DNA of 64,000 nucleotides, taken from Hormiphora californensis. Taxonomy: Eukaryota; Animalia; Ctenophora. Where the stretch lies: assembly GCA_020137815.1 (NCBI GenBank), contig CM035354.1:1240001-1304000 (forward strand). Reading direction: 5' to 3'. A model generated the notes under the pieces. The model saw nothing but the letters and a program-made list of their open reading frames with translations, had not been told where the DNA came from and did not search any database. A program made the translations under genes and the position numbers. Below are positions 10,101 to 13,100 of this stretch, one piece after another; position 1 is the first letter of the stretch, and every line of letters begins with the position of its first letter.

Positions 10101-13100
10101 CAAAAATATCTTTTGGGATTTCAAATTTTCCCCCCCAACCTTAAATGAATCCCTTCGCAGCTCTGTATCAAACAAACAGAGATGGGAGACAAAAAACTCA
10201 AACCTTTGGTTTTCTAGGTAACCCTCTGAGAAATGGGGGTGCTGTTTTTTTGTGTTGCACAGTTCATTTCTCAACCTTTTTTTTGTAGTGGGGAAAGTGA
10301 GAAAGTTATTATTTGACAGGAATATCATTTTGATATTTCAAACCTTACTGGATAATGTTGAGTGTGTCGGTATGCAAGCAATCGATTGAGTCAGCTGTCA
10401 GCAGCTTTGATATAGAGAAAAAGGAAGGTTTGCCGTAAAATTGAACACGTAAAAAACGAGTGTATTGTGACTACTCAAATTGAAGTTTGAATTTGTTCCA
10501 GAATGAACCTCTCTCCACTAAATGGAATTCCTCCCTGAATTCCTGAATTCTATCTTCCTCTCAGGTTGGTTGCTATGGTAACCCACTCTCTTCCTCAGGT
10601 TGGTTGATGATCGGACCGTGATCCGACCTGAAGATGGGGACTACCAGAATCCCCCTCGGAAATTCAGAGGTAAGGAAGAGATCTCATTCTTTGATGGGAC
10701 GTGTNNNNNNNNNNNNNNNNNNNNNNNNNNNNNNNNNNNNNNNNNNNNNNNNNNNNNNNNNNNNNNNNNNNNNNNNNNNNNNNNNNNNNNNNNNNNNNNN
10801 NNNNTCTCTCTCTCTCTCTCTCTCTCTCTCTCTCTCTCCATCTCTCACGCTCTCTCACTCTATCTCTAACATCTTACACACACACACTGACAGATCCAGG
10901 GACCTTTGGTACTTCCGGCTACGGGTGTTTTAGGGAGGGGGTAGTGGTCCATGGTACAAATCAAGTGGGGCGGGAGGGATTCACCTGCCAGATCAATATC
11001 ATTATTAATTTCTCAACCTTTCTATTTCTGTCTCTTGCTCTTTCGAGCTCACCAACTTTTACCATTTCTGAACACCTTACAATCTATAAATCTTGGTTAC
11101 GAAATAACCACCTTCGCACACTGGCAAGGGAGAGTTTATTTCGTTACCAACTATAAATCCTAGTCTAACATACATATTTCCTATCCTCAGCTACTCCATT
11201 TGAAATCGAACAAGTATCTGACAGTGAACAAGCGGTTACCGGCCCTACTTGAGAAAAACGCGATGCGAGTAAACCTTGACCAGTGTGGAAATGAGGTAAA
11301 GGGAGGGACAGAAGGAAAGGAATAGTAGTATAACTGAGTATCCTTGCCGGTACTCCGGTAGTGAGCTTTAACAAATTCCTTCCAAATTCCTAAAATTGCA
11401 CCCCCCCCCCCCCCCGCAGGGATCATGGTTTTACGTATTACCTTACTACAAGCTCCGTTCAAATGGGGATAATGTAAGTGTCAAAAACCAATCATTCGAC
11501 TTCCTCCGTCTCTGACGTAGGTCAAAGTTTGACAGAATTCTCCATCGAAGATTCTGCATATAATAGGAATAGGAGAGAGAGAAATAGAGAGGGATGGAGC
11601 GAGAGAGAGATGGAAAGAAGCAGAAAAGAAGGAGAGAGAGAGAGGAACATAAAGAGAGTTAGAAACTAAAGAGATAGTGAAATATAATGAGAGAATGAGA
11701 GAAGGAGAGAGAGAGAGAGTCACCCACTTCAGTTTAGTGTTTGACGTCGATCATAATGAGTTTTAACTCCTCAATCAAAAGGTACGTAAATTGGAGTGAG
11801 TGCGGAGACACACTGTAGTAAGATGGTTAAAAACGAAAAACCTCCTAACTGAATTTCTCTATCATAGTTTCTCTAATCCACCCCAAAAACTAATAGTAAC
11901 CCTTCTGTAACCCCCTCTCTCCCCACCTCCCCGACCCCCGTAGTCCGTACCTCCCCAGTCCCCTCACCACTGCCTCTAGGTGATAGTGGGAGATAAGGTG
12001 GTCACTCCTCCCCTCACCGTATCATTACACTAGGTGATAGTGGGTGATACGGTAGTCACCCCTGCCCTCACTGTATTGTTGCTAGGTGACACCGTATCGT
12101 TACACTAGGTGATAGTGGGTGATACGGTGGTCACCCCTCCCCTCACCGTATCGTTGCTAGGTGATAAGGTAGTCACCCCTCCCCTCACCGTATTGTTGCT
12201 AGGTGATAGTGGGTGATAAAGTGGTGTTAATGCCCGAAACAGCGGGTCACCCCCTCCACGCGAGTGGCATGGAGCTCCCAGACAACCCGGGGTGCATGGA
12301 AGTTAACTGTGTTAGGTGAGACAACTACAAATACCATCCCCTCACCCCTTCTTTCTTCAGATTTTTGTCGGGGATAAGGTTAGGATTTGTCCAATGGGGT
12401 TGACGGCCTCTCTAAATGCCAGTTCCCATTCACTTCTTGATCACCTGGGGTGCAATGAAGTTAATGTTATGAAGTAAGGGCCGGGTGTTGCGCTACCTAG
12501 TTAATAGCACATGCCGGGTGTTGCGCTACAAACAATATAGCACACATGCCGCGGGTGTTGCGCTACCTAGTTAATAGCACATGCAGGGTGTATTGCCGGG
12601 TATTGCCGGGTGTTGCGCTACAAATACAAACAATATATAGCACATGATGCAGGGTGTTGCGCTACAAATACAAACAATATATAGCACATGATGCAGGGTG
12701 TTGCGCTACAAATACAATAGCACATATGCCGCGGGTGTTGCGCTACAAATACAAACAATATAGCACACGCAATGAAGTTAATGTTATGAAGTAAGGGGTG
12801 TTGCGCTACAAATACAAACAATATATAGCACATGATGCAGGGTGTTGCGCTACAAATACAATAGCACATATGCCGCGGGTGTTGCGCTACAAATACAAAC
12901 AATATAGCACACGCAATGAAGTTAATGTTATGAAGTAAGGGCTGGGTGTTGCGCTACCTAGTTAATAGCACATGCAGGGTGTATTGCCGGGTATTGCCGG
13001 GTGTTGCGCTACAAATACAAACAATATATAGCACATGATGCAGGGTGTTGCGCTACAAATACAAACAATATATAGCACATGATGCAGGGTGTTGCGCTAC

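Follow-up and report, generated by a model that had tools for sequence, protein, structure and literature searches.

An old, diverged tandem exon duplication in the suppressor domain of a ctenophore IP3 receptor gene

Results

A duplicated exon in the IP3 receptor gene

The DNA analysed here is a stretch of 64,000 nucleotides (nt) from the genome of the ctenophore Hormiphora californensis (assembly GCA_020137815.1, contig CM035354.1, positions 1,240,001 to 1,304,000). We refer to the whole stretch as the window and count positions from its first letter. It holds a gene for the inositol 1,4,5-trisphosphate (IP3) receptor, or IP3R, in which one segment of the N-terminal suppressor domain is encoded twice, by adjacent exons that we call A and B (Table 1). 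An earlier note, made from the sequence alone, had described two 113-nt exons with identical phases, intact splice sites, a 45-nt gap and homologous peptides, and had read them as mutually exclusive. Recomputed from the window, every element of that description is as the note gave it. The exon pair is real, and it represents an old, diverged tandem exon duplication in a ctenophore IP3R gene.

In an ungapped alignment A and B share 56 of 113 nt and 16 of 37 amino acids. Searches of the PDB with either peptide returned IP3R chains only, 18 sequences in each case, with matches over residues 177-212 for A (best E 2.4e-11) and 177-210 for B (best E 8.9e-6). Based on these match positions, the pair covers residues 176-212 and two bases of codon 213 (rat IP3R1 numbering, used throughout), in agreement with the suppressor-domain placement that the note had proposed. 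With a full-length IP3R as the query (residues 3-1420), no other internal exon is matched twice over its full length.

Between the flanking constitutive exons the reading frame is open with A alone or with B alone. Joining A to B (226 nt) brings a premature stop that falls inside B, and stops also lie within the joined stretch when the spacer is retained between the two exons or when neither exon is included. The claim that including both or neither would shift the frame was therefore sound.

Table 1. Positions of the exon pair, its flanking exons and repeats, and the host gene in the window
Feature	Position	Strand	Details
Host IP3 receptor gene	7141-52558	+	Colinear exons for residues ~3-1420
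Upstream constitutive exon	11420-11473	+	54 nt; ends in phase 0; peptide 18/18 identical in L001
Tandem repeats	11961-12202	+	Five decoy copies of A's acceptor: 11980, 12034, 12086, 12109, 12161
Exon A	12203-12315	+	113 nt; phase 0 in / 2 out; ctag/GTG...TTAG/gtgaga; ancestral-like copy; IP3R residues 176-212 and 2 nt of codon 213; weak acceptor; RNA-attested form
Spacer between A and B	12316-12360	+	45 nt; GT..AG
Exon B	12361-12473	+	113 nt; phase 0 in / 2 out; ttcag/ATT...TGAA/gtaagg; derived copy; same IP3R residues; strong acceptor; conserved in L001 (880-992) and P0112
Minisatellite	12474-13266	+	Three copies of B's last 22 nt and donor: 12769, 12913, 13160; unalignable to L001
Downstream constitutive exon	14193-14262	+	70 nt; spliced to A in RNA run X2

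Conservation of both copies

A metagenome scan yielded 119 pattern matches, which resolve into five loci (L001-L005). One of these, a metagenome contig from another species (L001), carries the upstream exon, then A (708-820), a 59-nt spacer and B (880-992). Both copies are 113 nt long and occur in the same order and phases, with intact splice sites. Because a second species has the same arrangement, chance is excluded. The introns of L001 align to those of the window no better than shuffled sequence does (72-266 of 300 shuffles score as high, compared with 0 of 300 for exon B), which indicates that the two species are well separated. At the other four loci the exon is present in a single copy. 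Among them, the IP3R homolog at L005:1173-1337 has no intron before the residue-176 segment and encodes a divergent peptide with Met in place of Pro192.

The B exons of the window and L001 agree at 27 of 37 amino acids, and 25 of their 36 base differences fall at third codon positions. The proportion of synonymous sites that differ (pS) is 0.85 and that of nonsynonymous sites (pN) is 0.17 (Fisher p 1.5e-9), which argues for purifying selection on B. The A exons agree at 32 of 37 amino acids (pS 0.62, pN 0.12). By contrast, A and B match at 16-17 of 37 amino acids in all four comparisons of the window and L001. By this measure both exons are evidently kept by purifying selection.

A profile search of 1.84 billion protein representatives gave 249 matches, of which we examined the best 150. 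P0112, the only B-type sequence among those 150, shares 23 of 37 residues with window B, is preceded by Gln and ends one codon beyond the 37, both of which use of the same splice sites would produce. P0001 is nearest to A among the matches listed (29 of 37). Compared as protein only, P0112 and P0001 look like genomic open reading frames (ORFs) whose ends match the same splice sites. In a tree of 25 rows and 37 columns, in which columns are few and the bootstrap is not fully settled, the three B copies group in a single clade (100/99) with a long stem and A falls among ordinary IP3Rs. Together with the cross-species conservation, the tree indicates that the duplication predates the lineages of the window, L001 and P0112, that A stayed ancestral-like, and that B changed fast and then held. 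The earlier note had called for conservation and dN/dS to be checked in relatives, and had held that a degenerate or absent B would tell against its reading. This did not occur: B is intact in L001, at the rates given above, and P0112 is of B type.

Both exons show several of the features by which mutually exclusive clusters are recognised. They are neighbouring, share the same frame and AG..GT pattern in the window and in L001, are similar in length and sequence, and encode the same part of the protein.

Residue differences between A and B

To compare residues we used 56 distinct IP3R segments from 142 of 148 other proteins among those listed. Of 33 columns, 24-25 in A and 14-15 in B hold the residue of the majority. 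B has seven fixed residues (I176, C185, M187, G188, T190, A191 and N194), present in all three copies and in <5% of the other sequences. Near-invariant residues of the other IP3Rs in this region are V187 (54/56), N188 (52/56), Q191 (54/56), P192 (56/56) and H194 (55/56), and B has lost both L184 and P192, residues that all 56 segments share. All six copies, three of A and three of B, agree at D180, K181, V182, A195, S196, L200, D202, G205, C206, E208, V209 and N210. Residue 201 is Pro in every A copy and Leu in every B copy (three of each), and residue 203 is Asn in A and His in B.

Transcripts

The search for RNA returned two runs, X1 and X2, one of them sharing 0.29 of the query words, and both were read as contigs. 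X2 comes from a diverged relative (~87-90% nt identity, with synonymous changes in A). In record 16 of this run (935 nt, depth 18.6), A is followed by sequence identical to the downstream exon at 27 of 30 positions, with B skipped. Record 8 of X1 (151 nt) follows A and departs from the window just past the donor, where its mismatches are exactly the two that the first eight bases of the downstream exon would give; from this fit we infer the same junction. A is thus spliced past B in both runs, directly in X2 and by inference in X1. No joint between A and B occurs among the contigs of the two runs.

Spacer and splice sites

The spacer between A and B measures 45 nt (59 nt in L001). The shortest of the other 26 introns listed for the IP3R gene has 124 nt, and the neighbouring gene has introns of 70 and 93 nt, a third candidate having been left out for want of an AG. 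Motif prediction places a branch-point-like CTCAC in the spacer, with its A at 12344, 29 nt from the donor of A; in L001 the candidate motifs, likewise predictions, lie 41, 46 and 52 nt from that donor. A survey of human exclusive exons sets the steric criterion at a donor-to-branch distance of <50 nt, with frameshift and decay as the usual backup (PMC5740500; papers are cited here by PubMed Central number). The whole 45-nt spacer of the window is shorter than this distance. A spacer of this size is likely too short for splicing of A to B.

We scored splice sites with a matrix built from the other exons of the gene. The acceptor of A scores 4.0 and that of B 14.5 in the window, and the corresponding values in L001 are -2.1 and 10.1. 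Only two of 26 acceptors fall below 4.0, and the donors are mid-range. Each decoy copy of the acceptor of A in the upstream tandem repeats would yield a stop or a frameshift, and these repeats are not seen in L001. Further tandem repeats that copy the splice-site ends of IP3R exons, and thereby supply decoy acceptors and donors, occur at 28670-28740, 48460-49280 and 49440-49600. The idea that this genome preferentially duplicates splice-site ends is unsupported: nearby copies accompany 1 of 28 acceptors, 2 of 29 donors and 25 of 204 random intron 18-mers, in a test strict enough to miss the decoys of A itself.

The host gene and its surroundings

Proteins predicted from the window match PF08709 (Ins145_P3_rec) and PF01365 (RIH domain), as expected of an IP3R. 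A chain of 17 exons that includes A (11191-30778) reads through 764 codons without a stop. Exons for residues 55-121 are missing where a gap of Ns lies (near 10705-10804), and the C-terminal half of the receptor, including the pore domain, was not found within the 64-kb window. The stretches at 9000-10200 and 55100-57400 are rich in homopolymers and seemingly unpolished. Head to head with the IP3R gene, on the minus strand at 1-3420, is a gene with an N-terminus rich in Arg, Asp and Ser, kinase-like exons and introns of 70 and 93 nt, which may be CDK11-like.

The IP3R introns hold several mobile elements. An apparently full-length long interspersed nuclear element (LINE) runs on the minus strand from 21766 to ~16915, with an ORF at 21582-20692 and an endonuclease-reverse transcriptase (RT) ORF at 20178-17338. 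It starts with a complete ctenophore spliced leader (21725-21766) with no GT after the leader, is flanked by an ATA-repeat (21771, 16902) that is a possible target-site duplication, and is inserted in an older RT fragment on the plus strand (15867-16919) within an IP3R intron. These features suggest that the element arose by retroposition of a trans-spliced LINE RNA. The ctenophore spliced-leader motif (PMC8527503) has two exact copies in the window and none in 100 shuffles. The second copy (29511-29542, minus) forms the centre of a perfect 114-nt inverted repeat (29410-29662), a foldback or MITE-like (miniature inverted-repeat transposable element) structure that begins 9 nt past the IP3R donor at 29401. 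On the minus strand at 31845-35360, also in an IP3R intron, lies a further LINE ORF that looks intact (1171 amino acids, endonuclease and RT).

An 11.9-kb IP3R intron contains long ORFs nested on the same strand (38184-47461, plus). They comprise 300 amino acids without a Pfam match (38184-39086), 1267 amino acids with a weak SRCR_2 match (39581-43384) and 1293 amino acids with LDL-receptor A repeats and 7tm_1 (43580-47461). Their arrangement fits the nested genes described for ctenophores. An intronless ORF for a Shaker-type potassium channel (53033-54346, minus), with BTB_2 and Ion_trans domains and a nearest atlas cluster that is mostly Ctenophora, is probably nested antisense in an IP3R intron.

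Discussion

The pair shows every testable mark of mutually exclusive exons but one, a junction of B. The use of B would therefore be read from selection, not from a transcript. Given how its coding sequence has been held across species, we consider it very probable that B is a used alternative exon. For human clusters, one dominant exon and one restricted exon is the usual state (PMC5740500), and we expect that B would likewise be spliced in as a minor or cell-type-restricted form. Exclusivity would be enforced sterically, by a predicted branch point 29 nt (41-46 nt in L001) from the donor of A, and backed by frameshift and decay. The weak acceptor of A, the strong acceptor of B and the closeness of the predicted branch point to the donor of A suggest a simple model. 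A would be the default exon and would block the branch point of B; its weak acceptor would act as the switch, and silencing of A would free the strong acceptor of B.

What might such a swap do to the receptor? The first residues of the exon belong to the HS loop (165-180), of which they are the last five; this loop touches the adjacent subunit and links binding to gating (PMC6385359). Both exons retain D180, a ligand of an inter-subunit Ca2+ site (PMC9663519). According to simulations of rat IP3R1, V201 and D202 take part in 6 of the 21 listed contact pairs between the suppressor domain and the alpha part of the IP3-binding core (IBC-alpha), with contact values of 0.49-0.87 without IP3 and 0.03-0.13 with it, and none of 25 suppressor/IBC-beta pairs lies within the exon (PMC6975907). 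Because the contacts of V201 vanish with IP3, the Pro/Leu difference at 201 lies at an interface that moves on IP3 binding. In vertebrates, the affinities of the IP3R subtypes are set by the suppressor domain (PMC3111726). With residues 201-202 at the interface of the suppressor domain and the IP3 core, it is plausible that the swap alters IP3 sensitivity.

We propose that B kept the strand core, made up of the residues common to all six copies, and may have remodelled 184-194 and the 197-204 loop, including Pro/Leu 201, which would shift the contact between the suppressor domain and the IP3 core. The swap would then give two suppressor domains that differ in how IP3 binding is coupled to channel opening. 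If B is used, a measurable change in IP3 sensitivity or gating is on balance probable. The explanation as a whole, namely an old duplication, mutually exclusive use and altered coupling of IP3 binding to opening, is to us an even bet. An AlphaFold model of the N-terminal fragment of a primate IP3R, built from an 8-row alignment, had a mean predicted local distance difference test score (pLDDT) of 36 and was not used.

Several observations weigh against this explanation. Exon B is without cover in both RNA runs; contigs drop minor variants and X1 has a depth of 2, so the missing cover is not evidence of absence. Among the junctions that the earlier note had singled out, the one from A into the downstream exon (12315 to 14193) is seen in X2 and fits X1, and those of B have no cover in either run. 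Protein searches for spliced B gave 0 of 2, 0 of 2775 and 1 of 401 candidates, and the single candidate is P0112, a genomic ORF; the word-index searches spanned proteins of 71-2000 or 194-2000 residues, which excludes full-length receptors, and were weak in that they missed vertebrate IP3R fragments that the collection does contain. A protein atlas had no usable match to the B peptide. Among the 150 matches listed of 249, B-type sequence occurs once. The note's reading of mutually exclusive use is upheld by anatomy, frame logic and purifying selection on B; a spliced transcript that contains B was found neither in the two runs nor among the protein candidates.

Other opposing points concern function and mechanism. 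Six of the seven B-specific residues, those at 185-194, appear in neither contact table. A and B do not differ at D202 or D180, and other IP3Rs carry a wide range of residues at position 201. The exon contains none of the seven classical suppression residues (PMC4204029), and the contact data come from simulations of rat IP3R1, not of the ctenophore protein (PMC6975907). The position of the branch point is a guess based on its motif, and the spacer was judged against the introns of this gene and its neighbour.

These points lend some weight to an alternative in which B is a used exclusive exon, but the swap mainly alters a partner surface, redox regulation (through the new fixed Cys185) or subunit packing, with IP3 sensitivity staying about the same. 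We regard this as a possibility to be taken seriously, though not as the probable case. The B-specific residues outside the intra-subunit contact tables replace residues that are near-invariant in other IP3Rs, and thiol regulation of the suppressor domain has been reported, with Cys206 and Cys214 predicted to be accessible (PMC3610541). Counter to this, each of the three A/B comparisons also shows a swap at positions 201 and 203 of the alpha interface, the HS loop that couples binding to gating holds the start of the exon (PMC6385359), and the literature excerpts give no partner for 185-194. It is also conceivable, but unlikely, that B was functional in an ancestor and is so in relatives, yet is unspliced and decaying in H. 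californensis. The lack of RNA cover would agree with decay, as would the fact that the donor of B sits in a minisatellite specific to this lineage, which holds three decoy copies of it. With P0112 as outgroup, 4 of 10 differences in B fall on the branch of the window, 1 on that of L001 and 5 are unassigned, and they include Pro204Leu. A, however, is skewed likewise (2 on the window branch, 0 on that of L001, 3 unassigned), so the skew looks like that of a faster lineage. Moreover, B has no stop or indel, both its splice sites are intact, its acceptor is among the strongest in the gene, and its pN of 0.17 is far below its pS of 0.85.

Short IP3R variants from this region are known in mammals. 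B could thus be imagined as a poison exon, with A plus B leading to decay, or as an alternative last exon giving a short protein of the suppressor domain only. A transcript with both exons would indeed stop inside B, and read-through of the donor of B would reach a stop at once. But selection on the protein of B acts in the frame in which it replaces A, not in the frame that would follow A, and the donor after B is retained in the window and in L001. The stop past the donor holds for A too and follows from GT-R-A in phase 2, and the spacer is likely too short to join A to B. We consider this alternative very improbable. Finally, the second copy might be an artefact of assembly or haplotype, or a recent neutral tandem repeat, given that the region is rich in recent tandem repeats that copy splice-site ends and that some stretches of the window seem poorly polished. 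However, A and B differ at half of their bases without a gap, and each is nearer to its counterpart in L001 (32 and 27 of 37 amino acids) than to its neighbour (16-17). L001 is an independent assembly, and it refutes this account, to which we give next to no credence.

Ion channel genes often carry pairs of mutually exclusive exons. Within the same channel superfamily, insect ryanodine receptors (RyR) have neighbouring homologous exons, 19a and 19b, that are used singly (PMC4204029), and human RYR3 has an exclusive pair (PMC5740500 supplement), but in both cases the gene and the exons are other than those described here. The beetle IP3R has only an optional 8-residue exon (922-929; PMC4204029). 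In ctenophores, a homologous exon pair predicted in Mhc2 of Mnemiopsis leidyi tunes a region that handles nucleotide or ligand (PMC3912159), so this phylum already offers a precedent for mutually exclusive exons, although that gene encodes a myosin, not a channel. Exons 4a and 4b of OGDH (PMC7969005) and 57 human clusters with a donor-to-branch distance of <50 nt (PMC5740500) resemble the ctenophore pair in their short distance and in the frameshift upon joint inclusion. Pairs of the OGDH type have a long intron with a distant branch point, whereas in the comb jelly the whole intron is tiny (45 or 59 nt) and the branch point is predicted. We found no mutually exclusive IP3R pair in print, in a search that mostly fell outside subscription papers. 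ITPR1-3 had no matches in 10 supplementary files of the human survey (PMC5740500), and passages of PMC9522344, PMC5095125, PMC13503717, PMC8301844 and PMC3586727 held nothing on an exon for IP3R residues 176-212.

The vertebrate counterpart of this exon deserves comment. It uses the same acceptor before residue 176, is 99 nt long with phases 0-0, ends after E208 and could be skipped in frame (L002-L004); a break after E208-V appears in 118 of 150 proteins among the matches listed. The earlier note had set the ctenophore pair apart from vertebrate splicing on the grounds that the vertebrate splice sites SI, SII and SIII lie elsewhere. In IP3R1 they do, but with an in-frame exon that shares the acceptor, vertebrates may also splice at the residue-176 segment. 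A mouse IP3R2 splice variant attributed to Iwai et al. in 2005 reportedly lacks residues 176-208; it serves as a lead only, and literature searches for its name or coordinates gave nothing relevant. If that account is right, the homologous exon is a single cassette that is skipped in the mouse, whereas the 113-nt exon of the comb jelly is replaced and could not be skipped in frame.

Vertebrates have three IP3R genes, and the diversity of IP3 sensitivity among IP3R1, IP3R2 and IP3R3 has been placed in the suppressor domain (PMC3111726), the domain that A and B alter. In the comb jelly, one gene would instead swap 38 residues. Extending the proposal of exclusive use and altered coupling, we suggest tentatively, and at less than even confidence, that across comb jellies one IP3R gene builds two cell-type-specific subtypes (for example in nerve, muscle and comb cells) of differing IP3 sensitivity by swapping this suppressor exon. 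If true, comb jellies would have evolved independently, through splicing, a counterpart to what vertebrates have in three IP3R genes, and at the very exon that mammals may skip in IP3R2. A long-conserved swap of 38 residues in the suppressor domain of an early-branching animal lineage is a natural two-state experiment, and it tests which part of the suppressor domain tunes ligand-to-gate coupling. It draws attention to residues 185-194, which are near-invariant in other IP3Rs and have no role assigned in the literature excerpts examined. In ctenophore neurons and muscle, the exon pair further provides a marker of cell type with respect to calcium signalling.

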